Source: Candidatus Woesearchaeota archaeon (GTDB lineage: Archaea; Nanobdellota; Nanobdellia; SCGC-AAA011-G17; PNOQ01). Taken from it: 12,918 bases of DNA. Below are positions 1 to 12,918 of the stretch, piece by piece. The position numbers were made by a program, and so were the translations under genes. Where the stretch lies: positions 1 through 12,918 of the forward strand of contig CAYZTT010000014.1 in the NCBI GenBank assembly GCA_964481835.1. Reading direction: 5' to 3'. Position 1 is the stretch's first letter; every line of letters starts with the position of its first letter. Below the pieces are notes generated by a model. It did no database searches and was not told the origin of the DNA. It saw only the letters and a program-made list of their open reading frames with translations.

Positions 1-25
1 ACTAAAATTACTTGCTTGTATTCAC

Positions 26-337
26 TCATTTTTTGCCTTCTGATTTAAATTTGTGTTTAACCTGGCTCTCAACCTTCCTTAACACTTTATGTAGTGCCTT
101 ATGCAGCTCCCAATCATCTCCTTTCACATTAATTAAACTCTCCGGGGTTTTTACCTTAGCGTGAAAAGAATATTTACATCTCTCTCCAGCCTTATCATGT
201 TTTTTAGCATGTATGCTCAACAATCCAGGGAGATCTCTCTTTATCTTCTCATAATACCGCATAGAAAACTCTTCTATTTCCATTTTCTCATCATCCTTAA
301 AGTCCCTTAGGCCCAAAATTTGTATATTCTCATCCAT
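26..337 (-). CDS. Small basic protein resembling the ribosome hibernation factor HPF/RaiA (S30AE-like)
   Basis: 103-aa ORF with ATG at 335-337 on the minus strand. It aligns by eye to the HPF/YfiA pattern: an N-terminal strand 'NIQILG', a helix 'EIEEFSMRYYEKIKRDL', then 'KYSFHAKVKTPESLINVKGDDWELHKALHKVLRKVESQVKHKFK'. That last segment matches the conserved 'vEvtv.v.g..l.a.e..D.y.AiD...dKLe.Ql.K.k.k' half. The coding call is solid; the function call is tentative because no HMM was run. Confidence 0.5.
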   Translation of the reverse strand: MDENIQILGLRDFKDDEKMEIEEFSMRYYEKIKRDLPGLLSIHAKKHDKAGERCKYSFHAKVKTPESLINVKGDDWELHKALHKVLRKVESQVKHKFKSEGKK

Positions 338-364
338 CTTAATATATTAAAGAATAAAAGCTAT

Positions 365-2611
365 TTATTTCTTTCTCTTTTTATCAAAGAAATAGAACCC
401 TGCCAACAAAAGGGCCACAATAACAATTGATAAACTGCTCATAAATGGAACATTCTCACTAGCTAAAAAGCACTCTTGGAATTCTTCATATGTTGCTCCC
501 CCAGGAGATAAATAAATGACCTGCATCTCTCCAACCCCATCAGAACAGTCATTCGGACTTGATGCTGGACAAGCACAATCTCCAAAAATAGTTTGAGCTA
601 CATCTGAGCTTCCAGGAGGTGTGCCTGGCCCTCCAATATTAAAACATGATTGACAATCGCTCTCACATCTAAAAGCACCACTACAAGTTCCAGTTTCGCT
701 TCCAGGAGGATCGCAAACTTCATCATAACCATCACTACCATCATTGTCTATACTGCCATCGCCACACTCGTCATCACACGTAGAAGAACAACCGTCTCCA
801 TCCCGAGGAGTACATGTTCCTCCCGCACCTGCACAATCAGCATCACTCTCACAATAAGTTGAATCATCCCCTGTACAAAGTCCTCCATCATCACAATCTT
901 CTGTCCCTTCAGGAACTCCATTTCCACATGTGGATGGTCCTACAGAAGCACAAGTACAATCATTCATACAAATATCTCCTCCACTACATCCATCTCCCAA
1001 TACTAGAATATTATCGACAACTATAGATGAGATATAAGCATCCACTCCATTCCAAGTATAAGTCTCGGTTGTTCTAGGGGCATATAGGGCATCACAATCT
1101 TCTACACCATCTCGAACAAAATTTCCGCATCCTGCAGCATCAGTCACGCCAGCAGCAACACAATAATCGCCTGCCATATCCATATTGTCTCCAGGGACAT
1201 TATCCACAACATTTCTTAGAATATCATCATCAAATTCATCACAACATAAGGCTCCACCAATATCTGTGACTATTGACTCTCCCCCATCATCTCCACAAGC
1301 TTCAATCTCAAAATTAGAGCGATCATCTGGATAATGCCAAACTGTCCCATCCATTTCCCATCCATTGAATATCTTTACATACAAATCCACATCATTAACA
1401 TATTCCCCATAGGTTCCAATACTTGCTCCTTCAGCCCATACAACATCATCTGTCATATCCAAGGGTAAGCAATCAGAATAGAATTGAGTAACATAGTTCT
1501 CGCCATCATCTAAATCCCTAGTTCCGCTTCCTGCACGACAAGAAGTTCCTTGGCAATACCCCCCTCCTTCTCCGCCATCACAAATATTATTTCCTGTTGC
1601 GCCCGGATCTCCACAAACTTCATTACATTCCGGCGCCCCTGGTGGAAAGGTAGCTAAACAATCTTCAGTAGCCATTGTAGAACCATAGCCTCCTACAGTG
1701 CCCCCCATAGAAGATCCAAGGTTCTCTCCCCTTAAATCAAAGGGCTGTGATGCTGCGCCATCGCAAGACCTTGTATACGCAGTAGTAGCATCTGAGCAAC
1801 CAGCAGCATCTTGTGTTATACTCGGACAATTGCTCTTATCCCATCCACTAACTATGTCTCCATCGCTCCCGGCCCCATAATCGCAAGATCTTCCAAGAGT
1901 AAGGTCTCCCCCATACGGGCCAGCACAATATTCTAAACAAAATCCGCCTTCCCATTGCCAACTACTCTCCATATCTTCTAAAGCAGGTATTTGAGATGCA
2001 CCCCATTCTGCAGGGCCATATACTTTCTTAGCATCAATTGCATCATAGTCATTGGCACAATGTTGGTAAGGATGCGTCTCCGAGAGACCTTTTATTTGGG
2101 CATAAGGTGGGAACGCTGGATGCCCATTGCTACTATCCTGGCAAAAACTTCTCTTAACAATATAACTTCCAGCCACAAAATTACAAGAGCTATCTGGTAT
2201 CCAAGAAGGATCATAGCAAACAGATTCCGAATATGAATATGAAGTAGGACTAGTTACATCTCCCCCAGTGTAAGTAACATAGGGGTCTGCTTGAAAAAAT
2301 CTATTTATACACTCTCCTGGGCCTCCACCTGGACCTGGATCAACCCAATCACAAAGATGCAATACATCTCCTGTACCGTCTGCCTGTCCGGATTGACCTC
2401 CACGATCCTCTCTAAAACAATTCGCCCTATGGGGAAGATCTTCATTTTCGCAAGTAAGCTGACTCAAACCGCCACATAATATATTACAATCGGGGTAACT
2501 AACTGGGTTCCCAAATCCTGCACCCATATATCCATCACAAGGCGCGGCTGCAAGTGAATTAAAACTACTCAATATAAAACTAAAAACCAATACTAATATC
2601 AACCTCTTCAT
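365..2611 (-). CDS. Large cysteine-rich secreted surface protein with Myxococcus-type Cys-rich repeats and a C-terminal TM anchor
   Basis: The ORF extends to a TTG at 2617, but the ATG at 2609-2611 gives 'MKRLILVLVFSFILSSFNSLAAA|PCDG', a classic signal peptide, and lies 26.5 nt from a TATA box. The protein has roughly 50 Cys (about 7%) and is Asp/Gly-rich. The repeats 'CGNFVRDGVEDCD', 'CGNGVPEGTEDCDDG...DGDGCSSTC' and 'CGDGSIDN..DEVCDPPG' resemble the TIGR02232-type CGNG..E.CDDGN..DGC repeat. The C-terminus 'VPFMSSLSIVIVALLLAGFYFFDKKRKK' is a TM helix plus a basic tail. Confidence 0.75.
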   Translation of the reverse strand: MKRLILVLVFSFILSSFNSLAAAPCDGYMGAGFGNPVSYPDCNILCGGLSQLTCENEDLPHRANCFREDRGGQSGQADGTGDVLHLCDWVDPGPGGGPGECINRFFQADPYVTYTGGDVTSPTSYSYSESVCYDPSWIPDSSCNFVAGSYIVKRSFCQDSSNGHPAFPPYAQIKGLSETHPYQHCANDYDAIDAKKVYGPAEWGASQIPALEDMESSWQWEGGFCLEYCAGPYGGDLTLGRSCDYGAGSDGDIVSGWDKSNCPSITQDAAGCSDATTAYTRSCDGAASQPFDLRGENLGSSMGGTVGGYGSTMATEDCLATFPPGAPECNEVCGDPGATGNNICDGGEGGGYCQGTSCRAGSGTRDLDDGENYVTQFYSDCLPLDMTDDVVWAEGASIGTYGEYVNDVDLYVKIFNGWEMDGTVWHYPDDRSNFEIEACGDDGGESIVTDIGGALCCDEFDDDILRNVVDNVPGDNMDMAGDYCVAAGVTDAAGCGNFVRDGVEDCDALYAPRTTETYTWNGVDAYISSIVVDNILVLGDGCSGGDICMNDCTCASVGPSTCGNGVPEGTEDCDDGGLCTGDDSTYCESDADCAGAGGTCTPRDGDGCSSTCDDECGDGSIDNDGSDGYDEVCDPPGSETGTCSGAFRCESDCQSCFNIGGPGTPPGSSDVAQTIFGDCACPASSPNDCSDGVGEMQVIYLSPGGATYEEFQECFLASENVPFMSSLSIVIVALLLAGFYFFDKKRKK
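638..1132 (-). other. Region encoding three CGxG-x(5-9)-(E/D)xCD cysteine-rich repeats (aa ~496-660 of the surface protein)
   Basis: Motifs read directly from the translation: CGNFVRDGVEDCD, CGNGVPEGTEDCDDG, DGDGCSSTCDDECGDGSIDNDGSDGYDEVCD. Confidence 0.55.
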
Positions 2612-2633
2612 ATACAAAAATTAAGAAATATAC

Positions 2634-2641
2634 TATTTAAA
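2634..2641 (-). promoter_or_regulatory. TATA box (TTTAAATA on the minus strand) for the Cys-rich surface protein gene, overlapping the rlmE stop codon
   Basis: It is centred 26.5 nt upstream of the minus-strand ATG at 2611. The rlmE TAA (2637-2639) is embedded in it. Confidence 0.45.
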
Positions 2642-3182
2642 ACTTTCTAATCCCAACAACATAAACTTCCTTACTTCTTTTCTTAGATGCCTCTGGTTTT
2701 AATATCTTTATAACCCTAAAACTATCTTTAACTTCCTCAATAAATCCACTAAACAGCTCACTATTGAAAATTTTACAAACAAAGTTTCCATTTTTATTCA
2801 AAACTTCTTTTGCAATCTCAAGGGCCCGCATACTTATCTCAAAACTTAATTCATTATCTACCTTCCTAACTCCAATAGTCTTAGGGGCCAAATCGCTTAT
2901 AACTACATCATATTTATCCAATTTCTCAAATAAATCTTCATCAAAAACATCTGCTTCAATAAAATTAACACCTTCAATCTTCACTTCTTTTAAATCGACC
3001 GCATCCACATCTGCCTTTAAATCCAAACAATACTGGCTCCAGCTTCCAGGCCACGCACCCAAATCCAAAACTTTATCTTCTTGTTTAATTAATTTAAATT
3101 TATTATTGATATTCTTAAGTTTAAATACACTTCTTGCCTTATATCCCTCGGCTTTGGCTTTGGCAGTAAACTTATCTCTCAT
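2637..3182 (-). CDS. rlmE: 23S rRNA 2'-O-ribose methyltransferase RlmE/FtsJ family
   Basis: 181 aa. The N-terminus 'AKAEGYKARSVFKLKNINNKFKLI' matches the family pattern. 'VLDLGAWPGSWSQY' is the SAM-binding motif (canonical DLGAAPGGWSQ). 'VISDLAPKTIGVRKVD', 'FVCKIFNS' and 'KPEASKKRSKEVYVVG' supply the K-D-K-E tetrad context. The start ATG overlaps the upstream stop as ATGA at 3179-3182. Confidence 0.85.
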   Translation of the reverse strand: MRDKFTAKAKAEGYKARSVFKLKNINNKFKLIKQEDKVLDLGAWPGSWSQYCLDLKADVDAVDLKEVKIEGVNFIEADVFDEDLFEKLDKYDVVISDLAPKTIGVRKVDNELSFEISMRALEIAKEVLNKNGNFVCKIFNSELFSGFIEEVKDSFRVIKILKPEASKKRSKEVYVVGIRKF

Positions 3183-4054
3183 TTTGTATGTAACTCCACA
3201 ACATCTCCACTTTGCAAAGTATGCTTAAGCCCACATTTCATGCCCTCGTGTTTAGCAGATTTCCCCCAAATCCTTGCAAAGCTGAACTTTTTAATAAAAT
3301 CCTTATGGACCTCGGAAGCTAAATCCTTAACGCTAGATTTTTTCTTCAGCGCAATGGGAGGATAATCCTTTTTCTTTCCCGGGGTTTTAGTAAAAACATA
3401 AATTAAATCTAACGAGCTCCAAATCTTATTTTTTACATGGAACGGGTCCTCTTTCCGTTTAACCACAATTCTGTTTCCCTTTATGCCTGCCAACTCAAGC
3501 TCATGACCAATAAACTTTTCTTCCTTCTTATCTTCCGCCAAAATAACAATCAAATCTGCTCCCCTAATTATCCCTAAATGCATTGGGCCCTTCTCTTTCT
3601 CCATAAAATTCTCAACAATAGCAGGAATCTCAATAAGTTGAATCGGAACCTCATTAATCAACATTGTTCCAACTTCTGGAGCCTTAGTGCTAAATTCATA
3701 ATCTGCAACCAACGGGCTAGCATTCGTAATTTTACTCAATAGATAGGATTTTCCAGAATTGGTCCTTCCAATCAAAACAACTTGGGCAGACCCTTCCTTC
3801 TTGATACTAAAGCCTCCGCCCTTGCCTTTCCTCGCTAACTTCTCTTTTTCCAATAATGCCTTATATTTAGAAAGCCTCTGCTTTATTTCCCTCTCCAGAT
3901 TTTCAGTACCCTTATGCTTATTTAAAGAGGAAAGCATCTTTTGCAATCCTTTAATTTTATCTGGTAATCCCTCTGCTTGCAGATATTCTTTTTCTGCCCT
4001 CTGAAACTCCGGACTAACATTCGTTGGCATATTTAAAAGAAAAAAAGATAGCAT
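3179..4054 (-). CDS. Reduced DRG-family (archaeo-eukaryotic) GTPase-like protein with a C-terminal TGS domain
   Basis: The N-terminal helix 'NKHKGTENLEREIKQRLSKYKALLEKE' matches the DRG pattern NKAT..H.g.LKakLAkLr. 'GFSIKKEGSAQVVLIGRTNSGKSYLL' carries the G1 P-loop and 'YEFSTKAPEVG' carries G2. The TGS-like end is 'LIYVFTKTPGKKKDYPPIAL...FARIWGKSAKHEGMKCGLKHTLQSGDVVELHTK'. An alternative start is the ATG at 4028-4030 (MPTNVSPEF). Confidence 0.75.
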   Translation of the reverse strand: MLSFFLLNMPTNVSPEFQRAEKEYLQAEGLPDKIKGLQKMLSSLNKHKGTENLEREIKQRLSKYKALLEKEKLARKGKGGGFSIKKEGSAQVVLIGRTNSGKSYLLSKITNASPLVADYEFSTKAPEVGTMLINEVPIQLIEIPAIVENFMEKEKGPMHLGIIRGADLIVILAEDKKEEKFIGHELELAGIKGNRIVVKRKEDPFHVKNKIWSSLDLIYVFTKTPGKKKDYPPIALKKKSSVKDLASEVHKDFIKKFSFARIWGKSAKHEGMKCGLKHTLQSGDVVELHTK

Positions 4055-4073
4055 AAAAAACTTTCCATAACGC

Positions 4074-4080
4074 TTTTAAA
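4074..4080. promoter_or_regulatory. Shared TATA-like element (TTTTAAA) between divergent tRNA-Leu and the DRG-like gene
   Basis: It is centred 27 nt upstream of the tRNA 5' end (4104) and about 23 nt upstream of the minus-strand ATG at 4054. It is the only TATA-like element in the 49-bp spacer. Confidence 0.5.
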
Positions 4081-4103
4081 TCAAAATTATCCCCTAAAAT
4101 TAA

Positions 4104-4187
4104 GCAGGTGTGCCGGAGCGGTCAAACGGGGAGGACTCAAAATCCTTCGGCTTAGTGCCTACGCAGGTTCGAACCCTGTCACCTGCA
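4104..4187 (+). tRNA. tRNA-Leu (anticodon CAA), no encoded CCA
   Basis: Cloverleaf folded by hand. The acceptor stem is GCAGGTG/CACCTGC (7 bp) and the D-stem is CCG/CGG. The anticodon stem is GAGGA/TCCTT with loop CTCAAAA, giving anticodon CAA. There is a long variable arm CGGCTTAGTGCCTAC (class II), a T-arm GCAGG-TTCGAAC-CCTGT, and discriminator A4187. It is followed by CTA and then T6, so CCA is not encoded. Confidence 0.9.
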
Positions 4188-5219
4188 CTATTTTTTCAAA
4201 TGCACATCCATCTGGGGAAACGGAATCCCAATCCCTGCTTTATTCAACGCCTTATAGATTTTAGTGTTTGCCTCATCCTTAGAACTAAACCTATCTCCGA
4301 AATCATCAACATAGAAATAGGCTTTAAACAATAAAGCAGAATCCCCCATTTCTCTAAAACTGACATCCGGGGTAGGGTCATCAACAAAATTCTTAAGGGA
4401 TCTAATTTCTTTCATTACTATCTCCTTCACTTTATCTACATCGCTCCCATATTCAACTCCAAAAGGAATTACAACCCTTGATTTAGGTTCTGGTAAAGCA
4501 ACATTCTGAATAACACTCTCCGCCAATTTTGTATTTGGGACTATAAAATACTCATTATCAAAAGAAACGATCTTAGTACTCCTCAACCCAACCTTAACCA
4601 CTTTTCCTTTAGTCTCATTATCCAAATAAATTAAATCTCCAACCCCGACACTCTTATCCATAACAACACTGGCCCCAGAAAAAATATTAGCCAACACCGG
4701 TTGCAAAGCCAAAGCAACAGCCAAACCAGCAACACCCAAGGCCCCTAACAAGGGCAAGATCTCAACTCCCCAAATATTTAGAATATATAAAACCGCAACG
4801 ATAAACAAAGATATTTTTAAAACACTATGCACCAAAACAGCAATACTATCATCCAGTTTGCTCTTCGTCTTAGCAGTGACCCTTTTCAAAGCTCTGATAA
4901 CCCCCAAATCAACTAAAACATAAGCTAAATATCCAATAAAAATAACAATAAGAGAGTAGATCAGATTGGATAACACCCCGCTAATATTTTCAGCTAAAGC
5001 TAGTCTACCCAAGGTAAGCCTCAGGGTAACCAACAACAAAATATAAGTTATCGGCTTAGAAGATTTCTTCATAATCAAATCATCCACATCCGATTTGGTT
5101 TTAATAGTGACTTTCAGCAAAATCTTCTCCAGAACAAAAAAAGCTATTCGTAATCCTAAGAAAACTACAAAAAAATACAAAAAAGCACTAAAATAAGGAT
5201 TTCCCATGTCAAAAACCAT
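4188..5219 (-). CDS. mscS: Small-conductance mechanosensitive channel, MscS family
   Basis: 343 aa with several N-terminal TM helices. The pore helix and beta-domain signature is 'LANIFSGASVVMDKSVGVGDLIYLDNETKGKVVKVGLRSTKIVSFDNEYFIVPNTKLAESVIQNV'. This matches the MscS pattern ..PF.vGD.I.v.g..G.V..I.lr.T.i...dg..v.iPNs.l....i.N. Confidence 0.85.
   Translation of the reverse strand: MVFDMGNPYFSAFLYFFVVFLGLRIAFFVLEKILLKVTIKTKSDVDDLIMKKSSKPITYILLLVTLRLTLGRLALAENISGVLSNLIYSLIVIFIGYLAYVLVDLGVIRALKRVTAKTKSKLDDSIAVLVHSVLKISLFIVAVLYILNIWGVEILPLLGALGVAGLAVALALQPVLANIFSGASVVMDKSVGVGDLIYLDNETKGKVVKVGLRSTKIVSFDNEYFIVPNTKLAESVIQNVALPEPKSRVVIPFGVEYGSDVDKVKEIVMKEIRSLKNFVDDPTPDVSFREMGDSALLFKAYFYVDDFGDRFSSKDEANTKIYKALNKAGIGIPFPQMDVHLKK
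4191..4196 (+). terminator. Oligo-T tract (T6) immediately 3' of tRNA-Leu, archaeal-type terminator
   Basis: TTTTTT at 4191-4196, 4 nt after the discriminator base. It lies inside the 3' end of the convergent mscS coding region. Confidence 0.45.
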
Positions 5220-5242
5220 CAGAAACTAATAAATAAGAAAGG

Positions 5243-5250
5243 TTTTAAAA
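5243..5250. promoter_or_regulatory. Perfectly palindromic TATA box (TTTTAAAA) shared by divergent leaderless genes mscS and trmI
   Basis: Its centre is 5246.5. That is 27.5 nt from the minus-strand ATG of mscS (5219) and 26.5 nt from the plus-strand ATG of trmI (5273). Each strand has a purine-rich BRE-like flank 5' of the element: AAGAAAGG on plus and GGAAAATC on minus. Confidence 0.55.
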
Positions 5251-5272
5251 GATTTTCCCCAATCCATAAAAT

Positions 5273-5986
5273 ATGAAATTCAAAAGAATCCTACAAAGAA
5301 ATGAAAAACAGTATTATTGGGTAGAGGGAGATTTCCACTCCAATCAAGGTATACTTAAAGAGGAAGATATAAAATCAAAATCTCGATTAGAATCCAGTTC
5401 AGGAAAAGAGTTCTCTGCATACGATGCAAAGTTCATTGATAATCTCAAAAAAATAAAACGTGGCCCCCAAATAATGTCTTTCAAAGATATAGGTCGAATA
5501 ATAATAGAAACAGGAATAAATAAAAATTCAACAGTTTTAGATTGTGGAACCGGTTCTGGAATGCTAACTGCATCGCTAGCCAACATAGTAAAGAAAGTAA
5601 TAACATATGAGAAAAGAGAAGGATTCTTAAAAATAGCAAAAAAGAATTTTGAAAATTTAGGATTAAAAAATATTACAATAAAAAATAAAGATATATACGA
5701 AGGAATTGACGAAAAAAATCTAGATTTAATAACCTTAGATTTAGAAAAACCAGATTTAGTTTTAAAACATGCAGAAACGTCTCTGGTTTCTGGAGGTTTT
5801 CTCGTAGTTTATGTTCCAACAATCCCCCAGATACAAAACGTTTTAAAAAATATAACTGAAAATCTCCAAGTTACAAAATTCACTGAAATATTAGAACGAG
5901 ATTGGAAATTTGAAAGGGGAATAGTAAGGCCAGAAAATCAAATGTTGGGGCACACTGGCTTTTTATTATTCCTTAGGAAAGTTTAG
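5273..5986 (+). CDS. trmI: tRNA (adenine-N1)-methyltransferase TrmI/GCD14 family (m1A57/58)
   Basis: 237 aa. The N-terminal beta-domain is followed by 'RGPQIMSFKDIGRIIIETGI', matching the family's 'tqi.ypKD...I' segment. The SAM motif is 'VLDCGTGSGMLTASLA', followed by 'DLITLDLEKP'. The family-typical C-terminus is 'RPENQMLGHTGFLLFLRK'. Confidence 0.85.
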   Translation: MKFKRILQRNEKQYYWVEGDFHSNQGILKEEDIKSKSRLESSSGKEFSAYDAKFIDNLKKIKRGPQIMSFKDIGRIIIETGINKNSTVLDCGTGSGMLTASLANIVKKVITYEKREGFLKIAKKNFENLGLKNITIKNKDIYEGIDEKNLDLITLDLEKPDLVLKHAETSLVSGGFLVVYVPTIPQIQNVLKNITENLQVTKFTEILERDWKFERGIVRPENQMLGHTGFLLFLRKV

Positions 5987-5991
5987 TAACA

Positions 5992-5999
5992 TATATAAA
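5992..5999 (+). promoter_or_regulatory. TATA box (TATATAAA) for the PIN-ATPase-KH gene
   Basis: It is centred 26.5 nt upstream of the ATG at 6022. Confidence 0.5.
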
Positions 6000-6021
6000 T
6001 CTAATATGAGGACAATTAACT

Positions 6022-7806
6022 ATGAAAACATATGTACCAGACACTTCTGCAATCATAGAGGGCGTCATTTCTGAATTAATAGAAAAAAGTGAAATCTCCG
6101 GAGCGATAATTATCGCCAATGCAGTAGTTTCAGAATTAGAGGCACAAGCAAACAGGAGAAAAGAAATTGGATTCTTAGGATTAGATGAATTAAAAAAACT
6201 CCAAGGATTTAAAAAAGAAGGGAGAATAGAACTAAGATTTGTAGGCCCAAGGCCAACCCCAGACCAGATCAAATATGCAAAATCCGGAGAGATAGATGCC
6301 ATGATAAGGCAGATAGCCTATGAAGAATCTTCTACCCTAATAACTGCAGACATAGTCCAGGCAGAATCTGCAAGAGTATATGGGTTAGAAGTGAAATTCA
6401 TAGAACAAGTTCCTCTAAAAGAAAAACTAAGTATAGAGAAATATTTTGACAAAACCACAATGTCAGTTCACTTAAAAGAAGATACAACCCCCTTAGCAAA
6501 AAGGGGTGCCCCAGGAAACTGGCAACTTGTAAAAACAGGAAAAAAATTATATTACAAAGAAATAAACAAAATTGCAAAAGAAATTGTAGAAAAAGCAAGG
6601 ATGGACCCAAAATCCTTTGTAGAAATATCCAGATCAGGATCAACAGTAATTCAATACAAAAACTATAGAATTGTAATCGTAAGAAAACCAATTTCAGATG
6701 GCTTAGAAATAACTGCAATAAGGCCAATCAAGAAATTAAATTTAGATGATTATCAAATTCAAGAAGAACTTTTAGAAAGAATAAAAACTCAGGCAAGAGG
6801 AGTTTTACTTGCAGGAGAAACGGGTTCAGGGAAATCTACACTAGCACAAGCAATAGCAGAATATTACGCAAACAATTCAAAAATAACAAAAACGGTAGAA
6901 TCTCCAAGGGATTTGCAATTAGACCAAAAGATAACACAATATTCAAAAAACTTCTCAACTTCAGAAGAAATTCACGATATATTATTTCTTTCGAGACCAG
7001 ACAACTTAATATTTGACGAGATAAGAGATACTCCCGATTTCAAATTATTTATCGACCTAAGACTTGCTGGCTCAGAATGCCTGGGCGTAATCCACTCTGC
7101 TTCGGCAATTGATGCAGTACAAAGATTCATTGGAAGAATAGATACAGGTTTAATCCCCTCAGTAATTGATACCATAATCTTCATGGAAGCCGGGAAGATA
7201 CATACAATTTTAACTCTAAAAATGTCCGTCAAAGTACCTTCAGGAATGACTGAAGCAGATCTAGCAAGACCAGTAATAGAAATATTTGATTTCATCGAAA
7301 ATTCACCAGCTTACGAAATATATTCCTACGGAGAAGAAACTGTAGTAATCCCAGTTGAAAATAAAAAATCTCCTTCCCAAAAATTAGCAGAAAAACAACT
7401 ACTAAAAGAGATAAGGCAATATTCCAAAGATGCAGACGTAGAATTAATTTCCAACAATAGGGCAAACATATTTGTTCCAGAAAAAGATATCGCTCAAATA
7501 ATCGGAACAAAAGGAAAAAGAATTGAAAATATAGAAAATAATATTGGAATAAAGATAACGGTTAAGCCAAAACTAAAAAAACAAGATTCATTAGAGTATA
7601 ATGTTGCAGAAACAGCAAAGTACATAATATTTAGATTCCCAAAAAATATAACAAAACAATCTATAGAATTCACACTCGATGGACAGTTCCTATTCTCTGC
7701 AATAACCTCAAACAAATCAAAGATACAAATTCACAAGAAATCCCAACTTGGAAAAAGTCTAGCAGAAGCTTTAGATAATAACAGAAATATAGAAGCCAAA
7801 TTCTAA
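6022..7806 (+). CDS. PIN domain / PilT-like P-loop ATPase / KH domain protein (archaeal COG1855-type)
   Basis: 594 aa. The N-terminal PIN-like segment is 'YVPDTSAIIEG...'. The Walker A motif is 'LLAGETGSGKSTLAQA' and the Walker-B-like motif is 'PDNLIFDEIRD'. The C-terminal KH motif is 'IAQIIGTKGKRIENIENNIGIKITV' (GxxG). This three-domain architecture is typical of the conserved archaeal ATPase family. Confidence 0.8.
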   Translation: MKTYVPDTSAIIEGVISELIEKSEISGAIIIANAVVSELEAQANRRKEIGFLGLDELKKLQGFKKEGRIELRFVGPRPTPDQIKYAKSGEIDAMIRQIAYEESSTLITADIVQAESARVYGLEVKFIEQVPLKEKLSIEKYFDKTTMSVHLKEDTTPLAKRGAPGNWQLVKTGKKLYYKEINKIAKEIVEKARMDPKSFVEISRSGSTVIQYKNYRIVIVRKPISDGLEITAIRPIKKLNLDDYQIQEELLERIKTQARGVLLAGETGSGKSTLAQAIAEYYANNSKITKTVESPRDLQLDQKITQYSKNFSTSEEIHDILFLSRPDNLIFDEIRDTPDFKLFIDLRLAGSECLGVIHSASAIDAVQRFIGRIDTGLIPSVIDTIIFMEAGKIHTILTLKMSVKVPSGMTEADLARPVIEIFDFIENSPAYEIYSYGEETVVIPVENKKSPSQKLAEKQLLKEIRQYSKDADVELISNNRANIFVPEKDIAQIIGTKGKRIENIENNIGIKITVKPKLKKQDSLEYNVAETAKYIIFRFPKNITKQSIEFTLDGQFLFSAITSNKSKIQIHKKSQLGKSLAEALDNNRNIEAKF

Positions 7807-9062
7807 AACGGATCGTATTGCACAAGATTTCCTTCAGGAGTCACCATAATATTTGTATGGACTCCAGAAAAACGTGAAACAGCCTCATCATAAGTAAACG
7901 GCACAAAACCAGGATCCCTATACGGGTGGCGCCCATAAATATTATTGAACTGTCTAATCATACCTGGAGTGGCCTCTCCCGAAGCCAGAACTTCTCCAAA
8001 TTCCCTCCCAGGAATAAACTGCCTATCAATGTACCCTCTAAACCCATTCATCCCGAACTCGTCCTTAAGAATCCTTGTCCTTAAAATTCTCGCAGTGGGG
8101 ATTCCTCTAGCTTCCATCTCAGCTTGTAAAGCAACCTCATTATTGAACACTCCTCGGTGTATAATATGTTTTCTAACTGCCCCATTTGGCATACGATAAA
8201 CGGGCCTAATTCCTCCTTGCAACTCTACCGGCGCCCCACGTATAAGGTGTGCTGCAAAGAGAGATAGAACAATCGCAGGAGCTTGATGTACAAGTTCCTC
8301 AAAATACCCTACATCTCCCGACATTCTACGTAAATCCATATCAGAAAGTGCTTGCCCCCCCATATTATATTCAGTTAATTTTCCATTTCCATAATCTGCC
8401 CAGGCCTCTCCAGTCTTAGAATTGGAAAAGCCATAAGCTTCAAAAGGCAAATTATAGAAATTTATCTCTGAATTTGTATCTCTAACGTCCCCCCAAAGAG
8501 AATTATACATACTTTCTCCAAATTTTTCATTCACCCATCCGGGAGGATCCTGAAAAATATTTTGCTGATTCAAAGTCCAACTTTCCATCCCAGTAGGATC
8601 AACATAATTCATTGGATTACTTTCAACATAAGAATAAGGTTGATTCCCTTCAACCGGATCCACCCCACTAAACCTTCCCAAATTATCATCATAATATCTA
8701 GCACCAAAATAATACAAAGAAGATTCATCCTCTTCTTTTCCAGTGAATGGGTAATCCACTCCCGAGTTCACAACCTTCTGGCCAAAAGGCAACGATTTAA
8801 ACTCCTTATCTAAATTTCCAGAAGAATCCGTTGTAATTCGATTACTCATCCTGCCTTGATGATAATATTCAACTTCAGGACCCCTAACAGAGGCAACTAC
8901 TGAACTCCCCACATAAATAAACTTCTTAACTCCCATATCTTCTCTCAAAGGAACATACCCCCCCATTTCCCCAGAACTAATTCCCGGAATATCAATAACC
9001 GCTGCATAAGAAATAGGCACACAAGCAATTACCAAAATTAAAAATATCACCAAAGTTTTCAT
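7803..9062 (-). CDS. Secreted RHS repeat-associated-core protein with an unrecognised 260-aa C-terminal (putative toxin) domain
   Basis: 419 aa. The signal peptide is 'MKTLVIFLILVIACVPISYAA'. Residues 61-159, 'YYHQGRMSNRITTDSSGNL..LPFGQKV..YPFTGKEEDESSLYYFGARYYDDNLGRFSGVDPVEGNQPYSYVESNPMNYVDPTGM', match the RHS core terminus (TIGR03696-type: pfG...rFtGqe.D.etGLyyyrARYYDp.lGRF.s.DP...N.Y.Yv.nNP.n.vDPsGl). Residues 160-419 contain no motif I can assign. Confidence 0.8.
   Translation of the reverse strand: MKTLVIFLILVIACVPISYAAVIDIPGISSGEMGGYVPLREDMGVKKFIYVGSSVVASVRGPEVEYYHQGRMSNRITTDSSGNLDKEFKSLPFGQKVVNSGVDYPFTGKEEDESSLYYFGARYYDDNLGRFSGVDPVEGNQPYSYVESNPMNYVDPTGMESWTLNQQNIFQDPPGWVNEKFGESMYNSLWGDVRDTNSEINFYNLPFEAYGFSNSKTGEAWADYGNGKLTEYNMGGQALSDMDLRRMSGDVGYFEELVHQAPAIVLSLFAAHLIRGAPVELQGGIRPVYRMPNGAVRKHIIHRGVFNNEVALQAEMEARGIPTARILRTRILKDEFGMNGFRGYIDRQFIPGREFGEVLASGEATPGMIRQFNNIYGRHPYRDPGFVPFTYDEAVSRFSGVHTNIMVTPEGNLVQYDPF
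7806..8585 (-). other. Variable C-terminal domain (aa 160-419) downstream of the Rhs cleavage-type motif; function unknown
   Basis: It lies directly after DPTGM. It is cysteine-free and shows no HExxH, HNH, deaminase or obvious ART signature. Confidence 0.5.
8586..8882 (-). other. RHS-core / DPxG...DPxG[LM] autoproteolysis-type segment (aa 61-159)
   Basis: I verified by reverse-complementing 8571-8600: gat cct act ggg atg gaa agt tgg translates to DPTGM|ESW. Confidence 0.7.
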
Positions 9063-9082
9063 ATAACTCTAAACAAAAATTA

Positions 9083-9090
9083 ATATAAAA
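9083..9090 (-). promoter_or_regulatory. TATA box (TTTTATAT on the minus strand) upstream of the RHS-core gene
   Basis: It is centred 24.5 nt upstream of the minus-strand ATG at 9062, within the 34-bp spacer after the glycoside-hydrolase-like gene. Confidence 0.4.
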
Positions 9091-9096
9091 ATGTAT

Positions 9097-10833
9097 CTAA
9101 CCCGGCAGCAAAGGGGGGCTCAACTTACTCGCTCCATAAGATATCCAATACCCTTTCTTAGGCTGTAAAACATCCAACAAAGTTAATTCAACATATTCTC
9201 CATCAATCGGCCCGTATTCCCAGACACCATTAACCAATCCTGGATCTGCAACTAAATCAGAAACAACTATTGGATCTCTAACCCCAATCAAACTCAGTCC
9301 CTCACTAACAACCACTTCATCAATTTGTTCATAGCCTTCAAAAGATAAACTCACAACGCTGTTAGAATGCACAAAATATCCCCTTCCAAATTCTAAATCC
9401 ACTAAATCACCTTCACCGTTAATCCAGTATTCCCAATTACCATCAAATCCCAATACACTATCTGCTCCAGATTCACTAAAAATATCCAAACCCGAAGTTA
9501 CATCTAAGGGAATAGATATCAAATTCCATCCTTCAACAAGATCAATATCCGAAGTTATTAACAAACAATCTAAGTCTTCATCAACCTCATTATCACAATT
9601 ATTGTCTGCACCGTCGCAAATCTCTTCCATTCCAGGGTTTATATCATAAGAAAAAACACTGCAGCTTGAATTAAAATTATTGAAGAATGAAACTTCATGT
9701 TCGTCACTAACCTCTAGCCGCTTAAAGTAAAGCCTGCTAAGTCCAATTCCTCCAGAGAACAAATGTGTCCCATCCCCAAGTACATTTATCTCCGGGGCAT
9801 TATACACCTTATTATCAAAACTACCCAGCCAAGTATAGCCATCAATAAGGTCATCCGAATAAAAATAATTTATTCCCTCCGTGCTATGGTCCGTTTCACA
9901 CTCTCCCTGGTTAGATTCCCAACATTTACTCAACAAATAATGTCTCTCCCCCACATCAAAAACAACAACATTTTCTGCCTGCCCCATATCTACCTCTTCA
10001 ATCATATCCACTGCATTCCAATTAATTAGATCGGAACTTTCAGAAACATCAACTCCTGCAGATAATGTATCTGATCGCTTAATTGTATTATACATAAGCC
10101 AGCGATCTCCATCTTTCAAAACAAAGGGATCCCTACACTGGTTATTCCACCCCCCAGGAACCCCATGTGTGCTCCAAGGGTTTCTACAATCATAGACACA
10201 CCCATCTCCAGTTGTTCCAGGACAATTATTTACCGAAGCCCTATCCCAAGTAACTAAGTCACTAGAAATTAACAGTCCAGTTCTCTGACTATAATAATCG
10301 GGGGTTCCATCATCTTGATGTGCAACTCCGGTATAAAACATATAGTACATCCCATCATCTTCATTAAAATAAACATAAGGCGCCCAAACATTTCCGTCAT
10401 CCCAATCCGTCTCACTCAAACTAGAATCAATGACATCTTGGTGATATTCCCAATTTACAAAATCTGAAGTCATAAAATCATAAATTATCTTGTTATTATA
10501 ATGATGGTAAAATACATGGTAAAATCCATCCCGATACACAACAGAATGATCTGCTATCCACCCATAGGGCCCTGGGGGAGCAAAATTATAACTGGTGTCT
10601 TCATTACATTCCTCCGTCCCATCAACATAATAAGGAAAATAAGAATCAAAGCAATCATCTCCCCCACAGGCCTCGTCCAAATATCCATCCTCATCGCGAT
10701 CAGGACAATCTCCAAAAGGAAAGTTCGCAGGAGATTTCTGCGCATCTTGCCCAATAATACTCAAGAGTATAATTGCTATAAAACTAATTATCGCCAAACT
10801 GGTCATAAAAAAATAAAGTATCCTCTTTCCCAT
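9097..10833 (-). CDS. Membrane-anchored extracellular 5-bladed beta-propeller glycoside-hydrolase-like protein (GH43/GH32/GH68 superfamily) with MopE-like Cys/Asp motifs and an uncharacterised C-terminal domain
   Basis: 578 aa with an N-terminal TM/signal anchor 'ILYFFMTSLAIISFIAIILLSII'. Propeller motifs are 'IADHSVVYRDGFYHVFY' (candidate nucleophile Asp), 'VWAPYVYFNEDDGMYYMFYTG', 'CRDPFVLKDGDRWLMY' (RDP-type) and 'GQAENVVVFDVGERHYLLS' (candidate acid/base Glu). The propeller is flanked by 'DCPDRDEDGYLDEACGGDDCFD' and 'ICDGADNNCDNEVDEDLDC', both MopE-type putative metal-binding motifs. The family-level call is by eye only. Confidence 0.6.
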   Translation of the reverse strand: MGKRILYFFMTSLAIISFIAIILLSIIGQDAQKSPANFPFGDCPDRDEDGYLDEACGGDDCFDSYFPYYVDGTEECNEDTSYNFAPPGPYGWIADHSVVYRDGFYHVFYHHYNNKIIYDFMTSDFVNWEYHQDVIDSSLSETDWDDGNVWAPYVYFNEDDGMYYMFYTGVAHQDDGTPDYYSQRTGLLISSDLVTWDRASVNNCPGTTGDGCVYDCRNPWSTHGVPGGWNNQCRDPFVLKDGDRWLMYNTIKRSDTLSAGVDVSESSDLINWNAVDMIEEVDMGQAENVVVFDVGERHYLLSKCWESNQGECETDHSTEGINYFYSDDLIDGYTWLGSFDNKVYNAPEINVLGDGTHLFSGGIGLSRLYFKRLEVSDEHEVSFFNNFNSSCSVFSYDINPGMEEICDGADNNCDNEVDEDLDCLLITSDIDLVEGWNLISIPLDVTSGLDIFSESGADSVLGFDGNWEYWINGEGDLVDLEFGRGYFVHSNSVVSLSFEGYEQIDEVVVSEGLSLIGVRDPIVVSDLVADPGLVNGVWEYGPIDGEYVELTLLDVLQPKKGYWISYGASKLSPPLLPG

Positions 10834-10854
10834 ACAAAGAAATCTTAATTCATG

Positions 10855-10864
10855 TATATAAAAT
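10855..10864 (-). promoter_or_regulatory. TATA box (ATTTTATATA on the minus strand) for the glycoside-hydrolase-like gene
   Basis: It is centred about 26.5 nt upstream of the minus-strand ATG at 10833. Confidence 0.45.
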
Positions 10865-10896
10865 TAACCAAATATTGTTCCTCAACATATAAATCC

Positions 10897-10904
10897 TTTT
10901 TAAT
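10897..10904 (+). promoter_or_regulatory. TATA-like element (TTTTTAAT) for dacZ
   Basis: It is centred 24.5 nt upstream of the ATG at 10925. A second candidate, ATATAAAT at 10887-10894, lies 34.5 nt upstream. Confidence 0.35.
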
Positions 10905-10924
10905 CTAGCACCACTAAAAAAGTT

Positions 10925-11758
10925 ATGAACCCCATAGAGCAAGCTATAGGAACTGCAGCAACAAAAATTGCCAGAGAAATAAATTCCGATTCAATAATCT
11001 CAATTGAAAAATTAACCGGTGAAGAATACGAGGAAGATTCCAATCTTAACATAAAAGTCACAATTTTCAAAAGAATAGATCCAAAAAAATACAAAAAAGC
11101 AGAATATAAAACTAAAACAAGGAAACTAGAGGCGGGCTCCATAATCCCAGTAAAAGAAATTCTAATGGAAGCCATAACAAAGAACTACATAAACAAAGGG
11201 GAGCGAGTAGTTTGTATAGAAGATGGATCAACAGGAACCGGATACAAAGGAATCTTATTTGTGTTTGATGTTGATGAAGTATTTTTCAAAATTGGAAAGC
11301 AAAATATCTCAGAACATATAAATCCAGAGATCATAGAGGCAACAGTGGATATTGCTTTAAAGATAGCCCATGAGGGAAGAGAAGGCAGGCATGTTGGGAC
11401 TGCATTCATAATAGGAAATCTCTCAGAGATAAATAAAAACCTAAAACAACTAATAATTAATCCCTTCAAAAGTTTAGATGAAAAAGTGAAGATAACCGAT
11501 CCAGCCATAAGAGAAACAGTAAAAGAATTCTCCCAACTAGACGGTGTTTTCGTAATAGACGAAGAAGGCCACATAATAAGTGCGGGAACCTACATTGATA
11601 TAAATTTCTCAGATGTAGATCTCCCCGAAGGATTTGGAACAAAACATAGATCTTGTGCAGCCCTAACAAAAGAAACAAATGCAGTAGCCATCACAGTTTC
11701 CGAATCCGGCGGCAGAGTAAGAATCCTCAAAGATGGCAGAATAGCTGTAAAAGTCTAG
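10925..11758 (+). CDS. dacZ: DacZ-type diadenylate cyclase (pyruvate-kinase-C-like N-domain + DAC domain)
   Basis: 277 aa. The DAC-domain motifs are 'HEGREGRHVGTAFIIGN', 'QLDGVFVIDEEGHIISAGTYI' (DGA-type motif, here DGV) and 'GFGTKHRSCAALTKETNAVAITVSESGGRVRILKDGRI'. The last segment is the GTRHRAA...vVSEE.G.is motif, here KHR. The N-terminal ~130 aa regulatory domain fits the archaeal DacZ architecture. Confidence 0.75.
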   Translation: MNPIEQAIGTAATKIAREINSDSIISIEKLTGEEYEEDSNLNIKVTIFKRIDPKKYKKAEYKTKTRKLEAGSIIPVKEILMEAITKNYINKGERVVCIEDGSTGTGYKGILFVFDVDEVFFKIGKQNISEHINPEIIEATVDIALKIAHEGREGRHVGTAFIIGNLSEINKNLKQLIINPFKSLDEKVKITDPAIRETVKEFSQLDGVFVIDEEGHIISAGTYIDINFSDVDLPEGFGTKHRSCAALTKETNAVAITVSESGGRVRILKDGRIAVKV

Positions 11759-11793
11759 ATATTAATCACTATACAGTTACAACAATAGAAAGA

Positions 11794-11801
11794 TTTATAA
11801 A
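11794..11801 (+). promoter_or_regulatory. TATA box (TTTATAAA) for the OMP-like gene
   Basis: It is centred 28.5 nt upstream of the ATG at 11826. This supports 11826 rather than the TTG at 11808 as the start. Confidence 0.5.
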
Positions 11802-11825
11802 GAGAAATTGCCCTATTCTAATAAA

Positions 11826-12314
11826 ATGTCAAGTACAATAAAGAGAGGAATAGGACTATTAACATTTGCCCTATTAGCACTTCCCAGACTTGTTTTTGGA
11901 GACGTATACGCTGGCTTAAATGGAAGCCTATATGCAAATTCACAAGGGGGAGATTCATATTCCATCGCCGCAGAAATTGGAGAAACAGAAAAAGGAATGA
12001 ACAGAAGAGCAAATTTAGAATTCCAAAATCTATCAACTGATTTAAGAGTTGGATATGGATTTGGAAATGGTTGGTTAGTTCCTTATTTCACCGGGGGAAT
12101 TTCGGCAATAGTTGAACCTTCACTAAATGATGTTTCCTTATCTCCTGCATTTGCTGCAGGCCTAGAATTTAGATTATCAGAAAATCTATTGCTTGGGGTA
12201 GAGGGCCAATTGAAAGGACATCCAGAATCTTTAGAAGGCGATTCCGGGGTATCTTTAACAGGGACAAGCGCAGACAACAGACTCGTAAAAGTGTCTTTAA
12301 AATTTAGAAAATAA
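11826..12314 (+). CDS. Small secreted protein with an 8-strand outer-membrane beta-barrel-like pattern (OmpX/OmpA-TM/OMP_b-brl-like)
   Basis: The signal peptide is 'MSSTIKRGIGLLTFALLALPRLVFG|D'. About 8 amphipathic alternating segments follow: DVYAGLNGSLYAN, SYSIAAEIG, RRANLEFQNL, DLRVGYGFG, LVPYFTGGISAIV, FAAGLEFRLS, LLLGVEGQLKG, RLVKVSLKFRK. 'GYGFG', 'AAGLEFRLSENLLLGVEGQ' and the terminal 'VSLKFRK' resemble the PF13505-type pattern. The fold call is tentative. Confidence 0.45.
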   Translation: MSSTIKRGIGLLTFALLALPRLVFGDVYAGLNGSLYANSQGGDSYSIAAEIGETEKGMNRRANLEFQNLSTDLRVGYGFGNGWLVPYFTGGISAIVEPSLNDVSLSPAFAAGLEFRLSENLLLGVEGQLKGHPESLEGDSGVSLTGTSADNRLVKVSLKFRK

Positions 12315-12316
12315 TT

Positions 12317-12918
12317 CTAAAATTCGTAATTTAAAAATAATCCTCCGGAGTGAGTATTTGGATCCCACTCTGCCGAAGCTGAAAGCCCCCGGTAGTCTGG
12401 GCTTGTAACCCCAATTCTTGGAAAGTATCCCCCGATAGAATTGCTAGAGAAATCATGCAGTATTCCATTCCCTTTCAAGGTATTAACTAAATAGCCTATC
12501 TGATCTGAAGGCACAGACCATGATTCCCCCAATATCTCTCCCGATAGAGAATACCCAGAATAAGTGGTTCTAGTCGCTTGATACCCAAAAGGATAGCTTA
12601 CAGAGACAGTAGTCCCCCAAGGCCCCCCCCTATTCGCTTGGACTCCCCAAAGAACATACCCAGTCTGATGATTAGCATTAATTGTTCCTGAAACAGTAGA
12701 TTCTTCTTCAACTCCCATTTCCCCAACATAAATCGAGCCAATATTTGCATGCCCCCTTAACAAAAGATTGGCAGTCAATGGAGTATTATAATTAAACCCT
12801 GCCGCTTCCAAGAAAGCACTAGACTCTCCAATAAAAGGCACGTTAATTCTTCCCGCCGGATTTCTCGCCGGGATGGCCGCGTCGGCGTTGGCTGAAATCG
12901 GTGCCAACGCGAAAGCCG
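12317..12918 (-). CDS. Secreted beta-rich protein ending in an OMP beta-signal-like motif (…GGLFLNYEF); 5' end lies beyond the window
   Basis: The frame stays open to the window edge and reads '..AFALAPISANA|DAAIP', the tail of a signal peptide with an AxA cleavage site. The M in the ORF track is a TTG. Alternating-hydrophobic strands include 'ANLLLRGHANIGSIYVGE', 'TGYVLWGVQAN', 'TTVSVSYPFGYQA' and 'YSGYSLSGEILG'. The C-terminus 'LFLNYEF' has a terminal Phe. Confidence 0.45.
   Translation of the reverse strand, partial: AFALAPISANADAAIPARNPAGRINVPFIGESSAFLEAAGFNYNTPLTANLLLRGHANIGSIYVGEMGVEEESTVSGTINANHQTGYVLWGVQANRGGPWGTTVSVSYPFGYQATRTTYSGYSLSGEILGESWSVPSDQIGYLVNTLKGNGILHDFSSNSIGGYFPRIGVTSPDYRGLSASAEWDPNTHSGGLFLNYEF

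Follow-up and report, generated by a model that had tools for sequence, protein, structure and literature searches.

A putative Sec-exported, cage-less Rhs effector from a Woesearchaeota-type archaeon and the family to which it belongs

A stretch of 12,918 nucleotides from a Candidatus Woesearchaeota archaeon (contig CAYZTT010000014.1 of assembly GCA_964481835.1, positions 1 to 12,918 of the forward strand; the whole stretch is referred to as the window) carries, at positions 7803-9062 of the minus strand, a gene for a 419-amino-acid (aa) Rhs-core protein that has a signal peptide and no shell. With a probability of roughly 0.6 we read this gene, identified from the list of open reading frames (ORFs) and their translations, as encoding a Sec-exported, cage-less polymorphic effector of the Rhs type, whose family has expanded in Woesearchaeota-type DPANN archaea. 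The reading is built on a conserved N-terminal half that ends in a putative self-cleaving core and on a C-terminal half that is replaced, module by module, between close relatives. The protein is not a singleton; it is a member of a large family, which in Woesearchaeota-type archaea is apparently undescribed.

Results

Signal peptide and Rhs core

The gene starts with an ATG at 9062 and ends with a stop codon at 7803-7805; all parts of it described below lie on the minus strand. An earlier sequence-only reading of this DNA had reported the ORF without stating its strand, and had described its product as a shell-less, exported Rhs-core protein resembling polymorphic toxins. The identical protein was found on three metagenome contigs from independent samples, hence the ORF is not an assembly artefact.

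The N-terminus has the features of a Sec-type signal peptide (aa 1-20; 9003-9062), as had been claimed. Read directly from the sequence (MKTLVIFLILVIACVPISYA followed by AV), it consists of K2, a hydrophobic region of 14 residues and S-Y-A at -3 to -1, with the cut predicted after A20. Of the 120 closest homologues, 109 likewise begin with a hydrophobic segment of this kind. The possibility of a lipoprotein was considered, in view of a lipobox-like VIAC14 and a prolipoprotein diacylglyceryl transferase (LGT) gene on the contig. It was rejected because Cys14 is not conserved (it is Ser in the relatives P0007 and P0009) whereas ISYA is; besides, the residue at -1 is usually not small.

The signal peptide is followed by a variable linker (aa 21-44; 8931-9002) with an identity to the query of 0.26 over aa 21-40 and a low predicted local distance difference test score (pLDDT) in the AlphaFold2 (AF2) model, and then by the Rhs C-terminal core (aa 45-159; 8586-8930), which was delimited by TIGR03696, PDB alignments, AF2 and Foldseek. 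The core is made up of five YD-type beta-strands (aa 46-89; pLDDT 77-85) and the TIGR03696 region or aspartyl-protease plug (aa 92-159). The assignment to the RHS repeat-associated core was borne out by the hidden Markov model search: aa 92-159 match positions 3-76 of the 76 in the model with an E-value of 1.3e-17 and 64.1 bits (curated cutoff 32.5). In a phmmer search of the PDB, aa 42-165 aligned to the C-terminal core ends of mosquito SGS1/SGS4, TcC/YenC2, TccC3, RhsA, RhsP and Tse5. Foldseek with the full-length model (pLDDT 57) gave weak matches to the N-terminal part, the best being RhsP, a teneurin-like protein and RhsA.

The core ends, exactly as had been described, in two aspartate motifs separated by 15 residues, D135-P-V-E-G (8646-8660) and D155-P-T-G-M159 (8586-8600). 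D135, D155 and G158 are invariant in all 120 homologues. Rhs1 of P. laumondii carries two DPLGL motifs ahead of its cleavage site, with a spacing of 17 residues; the second one supplies the catalytic Asp, as D1338N abolishes cleavage, and the C-terminal part begins five residues after this Asp (PMC8636562). Because of the homology with the Rhs1 DPLGL motif, and because identity between relatives breaks off at this point, autoproteolysis of the archaeal protein is predicted after M159, between nucleotides 8586 and 8585.

The absence of a YD-repeat cocoon was likewise confirmed. The N-terminal part totals 159 aa, with only about 45 aa between the linker behind the signal peptide and the TIGR03696 region, and no Pfam RHS_repeat or YD-shell model matched it even at E<=10.

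A large family with exchangeable C-termini

A search of 5.8 billion proteins yielded at least 715 relatives; the family counts given here rest on the best 120 of the 715. These 120 proteins are 290-546 aa long (median 398), therefore the short architecture is the rule. All 120 match TIGR03696, and L91, G94, F106, T107, K109, F119, R122, Y124, D125, D135, Y145, P150, D155 and G158 are invariant among them. NCBI and JGI label such relatives automatically as 'RHS repeat-associated core domain-containing protein [archaeon]'.

The prediction that the sequence behind DPTGM would be swapped between relatives agreed with three sets of comparisons. Relative to the query, identity runs at 0.56-0.82 for aa 61-160 (0.63-0.82 for aa 101-160), collapses at aa 160 and is 0.09 from aa 161 onwards. 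All 14,280 of the 14,280 ordered pairs of N-termini match each other (median identity 55%), while the C-termini group into 64 clusters without links between them, 38 of which have a single member. Finally, paralogue pairs lying in tandem or close to each other within one genome (L001, L008, L011) have an identity of 80-100% as far as DPxGM and of 5-30% beyond it. The exchange itself is evident from these sequences, in which the conserved core-coding DNA would act as a recombination handle with the middle and terminal modules exchanged behind it. Such extreme turnover of C-termini is typical of conflict systems and not of signalling receptors. Since the core model matches and the C-termini are swapped, the protein displays the hallmark of polymorphic toxins, and the interpretation offered by the sequence-only reading is supported.

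The C-terminal domains recognized in the 120 members include LysM (6 members), Peptidase_M15_4 (2), TIGR02594 (2), a Pesticin-type lysozyme, NlpC/P60, a C39-like peptidase, a pretoxin-HINT domain and a tail of the type IX secretion system (T9SS) type. Archaea have no peptidoglycan, and several of these domains target the peptidoglycan of bacteria. C-termini that are directed at peptidoglycan or associated with polymorphic toxins must act outside the producer.

The taxonomic spread was assessed by scanning GTDB species genomes with the focal protein. Matches starting at residue 1, signal peptide included, came from Candidatus Woesearchaeota, Nanoarchaeota and unclassified 'archaeon' metagenome-assembled genomes (MAGs); the archaeal matches lie mostly in ORFs of 354-440 aa, with a few DPANN variants of about 500-780 aa. 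Bacterial matches mostly cover no more than aa ~45-160, preceded by an open ORF stretch of more than 1,333 aa that is presumably the shell. The relative P0003 sits among the genes of Spt4, Rpb7, S24e, S27ae, NAC, Sec61-beta, aIF2-gamma and aIF5B. Because of the full-architecture matches in archaeal MAGs, the archaeal neighbours of the gene and the setting of P0003, the attribution to DPANN archaea is sound, and the archaeal, small-genome setting that had been proposed is supported. An ORF of a candidate division KSB1 bacterium (L027:4001-4303; about 395-426 aa) has a signal peptide directly before the Rhs core, thus the shell-less Sec-type architecture is not strictly archaeal.

No paper on a shell-less, Sec-dependent Rhs-core family in DPANN archaea was found in the literature, of which the part on archaeal polymorphic toxins was covered incompletely; the only text naming both Rhs and Woesearchaeota did so through a single reference-list citation of Busby et al.

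The middle module and its independent exchange

The sequence-only reading had called the 260 aa behind the core unassignable. As far as sequence matches are concerned this stands: apart from the weak similarities given below, the 260 aa after M159 had no match in Pfam, NCBIfam or a PDB profile search, each at E<=10. The tail proved to have two parts, the second of which, the last 144 aa, is predicted to be kinase-like.

The first part is a middle or 'pre-toxin' module (aa 160-275; 8238-8585), defined by BLAST and phmmer and modelled by AF2 with a pLDDT of 73-89 over most of its length. Foldseek with the full-length model found nothing for it. The module is common to P0002-P0006 (53-66% identity) and, more distantly, to P0007/8 and P0051/52, and proteins sharing it continue into unrelated terminal domains. 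It ends with a hydrophobic helix in the AF2 model (aa 253-274, YFEELVHQAPAIVLSLFAAHLI; 8241-8306), which is followed by a basic stretch. The best 19-residue Kyte-Doolittle score of the helix is 1.51, and by hand count the net charge is about -1 before it and about +4 after it. The stretch aa 194-262 (8277-8483) has a weak similarity to Pfam RhuM (E 0.004-0.008, below cutoff) and is also touched by five PADLOC PDC-S05 models (best E 6.2e-5, 20 bits, below cutoff), which may reflect a real but very distant relationship.

Independent exchange of the two parts is seen at another locus. P0009 and P0014 share the terminal domain of P0007, preceded by different middle modules; the three genes lie at the same locus, which has the order SecD/SecF, Trm56, Rhs-core gene, 170-aa gene, an optional second Rhs-core gene and a PKD protein (L088:3001-4822, L089:3001-6021 and the JGI contig carrying P0009). 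When two strains were compared, identity was 76% for the N-terminus, 67% for the terminal domain, 85% for the downstream 170-aa membrane-anchored acidic protein, 83% for the flanking Trm56 and 25% for the middle module. Here the middle module was swapped while the terminal domain was kept, hence the modules are exchanged independently. The 170-aa protein has an N-terminal transmembrane helix and an acidic body, and its gene (L088:4310-4822 in one of the strains) lies on the same strand about 48 bp downstream of the Rhs-core gene; two of the three strains have an additional Rhs-core paralogue behind it. The interval from SecDF-Trm56 to the PKD gene is a rearrangement hot spot. The 170-aa gene travels with one type of terminal domain, resembling in this the partner in a toxin-immunity pair, and its product is on these comparisons a candidate immunity protein. 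The focal terminal domain is not related to that of P0007, P0008, P0009 and P0014: phmmer with all filters off detected no similarity, and the BLAST alignment between these proteins was carried by the middle module.

A terminal orphan domain with a predicted kinase-like fold

The terminal domain (aa 276-419, 144 aa; 7806-8237) is close to an orphan. An exhaustive search of 1.84 billion representatives gave one true homologue, P0123, and a profile search of the 5.8 billion proteins found no members beyond it. Three further candidates, P0121, P0122 and P0124, were judged spurious, being translations of repeats or low-complexity sequence that matched in many short stretches. P0123 is a protein of 266 aa with a different, signal-bearing N-terminus; it has 33% identity to the focal domain and the same end (...HTNI...QYDPF). 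Its contig has a BLUF gene upstream, which is uninformative.

The AF2 model of the domain, made from an alignment of two sequences only, has a pLDDT of 77.7 and a predicted TM-score (pTM) of 0.67. The elements follow in the order three strands, helix, two long strands, hinge, three helices and two short strands, which would correspond to the N-lobe, hinge, helices and catalytic-loop strands of a kinase, after which the chain stops. All of the top 50 Foldseek matches in the PDB were protein kinases, aminoglycoside phosphotransferases (APH) or the MLKL pseudokinase, with probabilities of 0.92-1.0 and E-values from 5e-4 to 7e-3, while the TM-scores were only 0.31-0.46. From this model it can be said with moderate confidence that the domain is a truncated, kinase-like nucleotide-binding fold.

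Residues invariant between the focal domain and P0123 are G283/G284, K298, E309, F349-PGRE, H402-T-N404 and D417-P-F419. When kinase positions were mapped by eye and by secondary structure, without structural superposition, G284 became a candidate for the Gly-rich loop, K298 (in 'VRK') for the beta3 Lys, E309 for the alphaC Glu, F349-PGRE for the hinge, N404 for the catalytic-loop Asn and D417 for the DFG Asp. N404 and D417 are 13 residues apart, the same spacing as that between N171 and D184 of cAMP-dependent protein kinase (PKA). The chain ends at F419 (D-P-F), and the entire C-lobe after the DFG position is absent. Because this lobe and the Asp of the HRD motif are both missing, the chemistry of the payload cannot be assigned. 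Kinase-type toxin domains do occur in systems related to polymorphic toxins (PMC3482391).

Surroundings of the gene

A TATA-box-like element, TTTTATATTA, was spotted by eye 19-28 nt 5' of the ATG (9081-9090, minus strand); in this AT-rich DNA it would fit, if weakly, an archaeal promoter of the gene's own and a near-leaderless mRNA. At the other end, the stop codon of the gene overlaps that of a convergent gene for a PINA-type ATPase (NF010335, 746 bits). Further neighbours in the window or on its contig encode a Gcd14/Trm61 methyltransferase, an MscS channel, a DRG-type GTPase with a TGS domain, FtsJ and a DAC-domain protein, and a PTH2 gene lies farther along the 17-kb contig. As the sequence-only reading had stated, there are no genes for PAAR, VgrG, or a type VI or type VII secretion system (T6SS, T7SS) around the gene; none is present in the window or on the 17-kb contig.

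The gene immediately upstream is on the same strand (9097-10833, minus; stop codon at 9097-9099), separated by a gap of 34 nt, and is GH43/GH32-like; no full-length rhs gene is found there. Its product is a 578-aa membrane-anchored or secreted protein with a region of the GH43/GH32-type five-bladed propeller and a MopE-type metal-binding motif. The two genes may be co-expressed. A pairing of a GH43/GH32-like gene with other members of the family was not seen, and the synteny of other genomes yielded no orthologous locus of the focal gene with another C-terminus. Elsewhere in the window (365-2617, minus strand) there is a gene for a 750-aa protein with a signal peptide, a composition very rich in Cys, Gly and Asp, and a C-terminal transmembrane helix with KKRKK behind it; no model of Pfam or NCBIfam matched it at E<=0.01, and it is probably a surface protein.

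A second member of the family is cut by the right edge of the window (12317-12918, minus strand). The ORF 12317-12907, which runs off this edge, is its C-terminus; the whole gene corresponds to L003:2080-3465 on the window's contig and is near-identical to P0034. It shares signal peptide and core with the focal protein but has a different C-terminus of about 283 aa, rich in Gly, Ser and Tyr, whose end (...GGLFLNYEF) resembles the beta-signal of an outer-membrane protein (OMP). Convergent to it, with a gap of 2 bp, lies a gene for a 168-aa protein with a signal peptide (11808-12314, plus strand), which scores 29.5 bits against Pfam OMP_b-brl, just above the cutoff of 28.7. The 168-aa protein was tried as a relative of the C-terminus of the second member, and no similarity was found. 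The gene pair recurs on two other contigs, including one place beside P0049, but as it does so at the same syntenic locus the recurrence is not independent evidence. OMP-like features are odd in an archaeon without an outer membrane. The LGT gene mentioned above (L003:93-788) is on the same contig, as is a Hom_end_hint-like ORF near the OMP-like genes; LGT and the OMP-like genes are bacterial-type envelope genes within a DPANN genome.

In other genomes small convergent genes were noticed at the 3' ends of Rhs-core genes (L001:12381-12806, L017:4933-5367 and L055:3103-3444, all minus strand). They encode proteins of 113-144 aa with an N-terminal hydrophobic segment, abut or overlap the Rhs-core genes by a few bases, and have neither similarity to each other nor a Pfam match. 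They could have come to lie there by chance, the genomes being compact, or could be partner or immunity genes of an unconventional kind. In one of these loci, from a related Woesearchaeota MAG (L055:1878-5263), two Rhs-core genes flank a PINA gene that is cut to its first ~90 codons and is 70% identical to the PINA of the window; the convergent gene between the two Rhs-core genes encodes 113 aa. This arrangement is either a real rearrangement beside rhs-like genes or an assembly chimera.

Discussion

The reading that we favour would work as follows. The signal peptide (aa 1-20), which is seen in the sequence, would guide the unfolded chain through the Sec translocon. Outside the cell the core of about 115 aa (aa 45-159) would fold, and the aspartyl-protease site formed by R122, D135 and D155, residues invariant across the family, would, by homology with Rhs1, cut after M159. 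The 260-aa fragment would thus be set free, and its middle module with the hydrophobic helix might mediate binding to, or entry into, a target cell. The 144-aa terminal domain would be the payload; it apparently keeps Lys298, Glu309, Asn404 and Asp417 as candidate nucleotide- and Mg-binding residues, and would act inside the target cell in a nucleotide-dependent manner. With export through Sec, the jobs of the shell in protecting the producer and packaging the toxin for injection would not arise; the shell may be dispensable because Sec export would keep the payload unfolded until it is outside the producer.

Several observations weigh against this reading. Export, cleavage and toxicity are all steps that we infer. 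For aa 90-156, where the core is most conserved, the AF2 model had a pLDDT of only 42-50 despite an alignment of 120 sequences; because of this poor model, and because the corresponding segment is buried as a C-terminal plug in the barrel of Rhs proteins (PMC8636562), the core may not fold alone and may need a partner or self-assembly. No ORF that could serve as an immunity gene is found between the stop codon of the focal gene and the convergent housekeeping gene PINA. A kinase-like payload needs nucleotide and must therefore reach a cytoplasm, and no delivery machine is encoded nearby. The call of the kinase fold was made from the two-sequence alignment, with the low TM-scores given above and a high root-mean-square deviation, and sequence models of kinases gave no match in Pfam, NCBIfam or PDB profiles at E<=10. 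When the domain was compared by hhalign with the N-lobe of PKA, the match was not significant (probability 2.4%) and only the hinge aligned, FIPGRE falling on MEYVPGGE of beta5 and the hinge. The position of the HRD Asp holds Ser399, i.e. the canonical catalytic Asp is absent. Finally, the net positive stretch after the hydrophobic helix would also fit a stop-transfer anchor that leaves the kinase-like domain inside the producer.

This last observation leads to an explanation that we consider unlikely, namely that the protein is a membrane-anchored, self-cleaving receptor-like protein which signals or regulates and does not intoxicate. Helix 253-274 would be its stop-transfer anchor: the Rhs core together with some 95 aa of the tail behind it would be exported, and the kinase-like domain would be retained in the cytoplasm of the producer with its supply of ATP. 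The 19-residue score of 1.51 is near the usual threshold of 1.6, relatives with the same module reach 1.6-1.8, and the charges on the two sides of the helix obey the positive-inside rule; kinase-like domains are normally cytoplasmic, and the missing immunity gene would also be accounted for. However, the hydrophobic run is only about 14 residues long and contains a His, and the catalytic Asp of HRD is missing. Moreover, other members of the same architecture carry extracellular peptidoglycan hydrolases with LysM, P0016 has a pretoxin-HINT domain behind a comparable, weaker segment (best 19-mer 0.96), which would be senseless inside the producer, and the extreme turnover of the C-termini also argues against a receptor. 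The peptidoglycan hydrolases with LysM point in another direction as well. They fit the 'vampiristic' lifestyle proposed for Woesearchaeota (PMC9723730), and together with the secreted GH43/GH32-like hydrolase encoded upstream on the same strand, and the absence of a consistent immunity gene at most loci examined, they would suit a secreted or surface protein that is not toxic. In that case the C-termini would be host-attachment or scavenging modules of an episymbiont (adhesins, 'feeding' enzymes), and the core a scaffold or processing handle. We give this explanation a low probability too: cassettes are replaced at a sharp boundary and many C-termini are singletons, a pretoxin-HINT member exists, the small downstream gene at the SecDF-Trm56 locus accompanies one terminal-domain type as in a toxin-immunity pair, and a kinase-like domain is no obvious adhesin or scavenging enzyme.

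The poor monomer prediction of the highly conserved core is what would be expected of a segment that folds only in a larger assembly. A shell could then be supplied in trans, by short copies assembling into a barrel or by docking on a large YD/SpvB-type protein as TcC does on TcB. One complete Woesearchaeota genome (CP060219) has, directly downstream of two tandem members, an ORF of more than 1,021 aa (L011:5273-8335, plus strand) with an N-terminal SpvB domain (PF03534, E 2.2e-9), which is the N-terminal domain of TcB. But the first 1,021 aa of this protein contain no YD motif and no RHS or YD-shell match, the ORF running off the locus, and neither the window with its 17-kb contig nor the other archaeal flanks examined contained a large YD protein; we regard such an arrangement as improbable. 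The two tandem genes of this genome encode about 100 extra N-terminal residues, which are an acidic low-complexity linker (DVVKNDVV...) and not YD repeats. The idea that the gene is a decaying, functionless C-terminal cassette displaced from a full-length rhs gene is effectively refuted. Short bacterial Rhs-core ORFs that start inside the core and have no signal peptide do exist (L035, L043, L049), but the focal ORF is equipped with a start codon, signal peptide and TATA-like element of its own and has no full-length rhs gene upstream of it, the protein is the same on three contigs from different samples, and the 120 closest of the 715 relatives share its architecture with invariant catalytic residues.

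The exported effector that we favour can be compared with several known systems. With the T6SS Rhs effectors (Rhs1 of P. laumondii, RhsA of P. protegens, RhsP of V. parahaemolyticus, Tse5 of P. aeruginosa) it shares the C-terminal core, two Asp motifs and a hypervariable region behind them, as well as a mode of diversification in which the sequence behind DPxG[LM] is replaced; the spacing between the motifs is 17 residues in Rhs1 and 15 in the focal protein. It differs in lacking the YD cocoon of about 1,000 aa, the N-terminal plug, PAAR, prePAAR, VgrG, the Eag chaperone and an adjacent immunity gene, and in having a Sec signal peptide and an archaeal producer. It would work like an Rhs or WapA polymorphic toxin and is a bona fide member of TIGR03696, without the shell by which Rhs/YD proteins are recognized and, at its locus, without an immunity gene. 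WapA of Bacillus subtilis and Streptococcus suis is similar in its Sec signal peptide and in needing no injection machine. It is an Rhs protein exported by Sec, in which the TIGR03696 core seals the end and is followed by 'PreT-CT', a pre-toxin plus a toxin (PMC12704120), an arrangement that parallels the middle and terminal modules described here. Unlike the focal protein, with its ~45 aa of strands, WapA is 250-350 kDa in size and has wall-binding domains, a full encapsulating beta-barrel and a cognate immunity gene. The core also aligns to the ends of TccC3 and YenC2 (E 1e-6 to 8e-6), and the logic of aspartyl autoproteolysis would be the same as in the TcC proteins of ABC Tc toxins; there, however, TcB and TcC build the cocoon and dock on the TcA injector, and for the focal protein no equivalent of TcA or TcB was found, apart from the SpvB neighbour, of uncertain meaning, in the one related genome.

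CdiA-CT, which is carried by a filament of the type V secretion system and has a VENN motif, is bipartite, with an entry or translocation domain and a catalytic domain. The likeness lies in the two independently exchangeable parts behind a demarcation motif; an entry function of the focal middle module would be by analogy with CdiA-CT only. OspG and NleH are minimal effector kinases delivered by the type III secretion system, which lack subdomains VIII-XI, retain the HRD Asp and are active. As would hold for the focal domain, they are secreted kinase folds of which little more than the N-lobe and the catalytic and DFG region is left, but the focal domain ends at D-P-F and has Ser in place of the HRD Asp, and neither OspG nor NleH was among the top Foldseek matches. 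As to archaea, classical polymorphic toxins were described as rare, with Methanosarcina and haloarchaea cited (Zhang et al. 2012, PMC3482391). Strock et al. 2025 (PMC12352652) described peptidoglycan hydrolases with which archaea kill bacteria and which are prominent in Nanoarchaeota/DPANN; predatory, peptidoglycan-degrading Woesearchaeota have been proposed (PMC9723730). These hydrolases are, like the members of the present family with LysM plus M15, Pesticin or NlpC/P60 domains, secreted archaeal effectors against bacteria; the focal payload is no peptidoglycan hydrolase. The term RHS is absent from both of these papers (PMC12352652, PMC9723730), which make no link to an Rhs-core carrier.

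At present the function of Rhs proteins is accounted for by the cocoon: it shields the producer and packs the unfolded toxin for an injection machine. A conserved cocoon-less family with a protease plug and cassette swapping would show that the core has a function of its own. Going further, we tentatively suggest that the Rhs core may be an autonomous, cage-independent, self-cleaving 'release and recombination' module, that Woesearchaeota-type DPANN archaea may use it in a large Sec-only arsenal, with entry modules and payloads exchanged independently, against bacterial neighbours or their hosts, and that the kinase payload truncated at DFG may be a new class of toxin, with two clusters among the 5.8 billion proteins; this is possible and far from assured. 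In practical terms, the focal core would provide a minimal system of about 140 aa for the study of Rhs autoproteolysis. In DPANN archaea the family has several paralogues per genome; how these archaea interact with hosts and bacteria is difficult to follow in culture. Through its peptidoglycan-hydrolase C-termini the family is also linked to the recent evidence for attacks of archaea on bacteria (PMC12352652). The singleton C-termini, the kinase-like orphan domain among them, make up a catalogue of candidate new effector activities.

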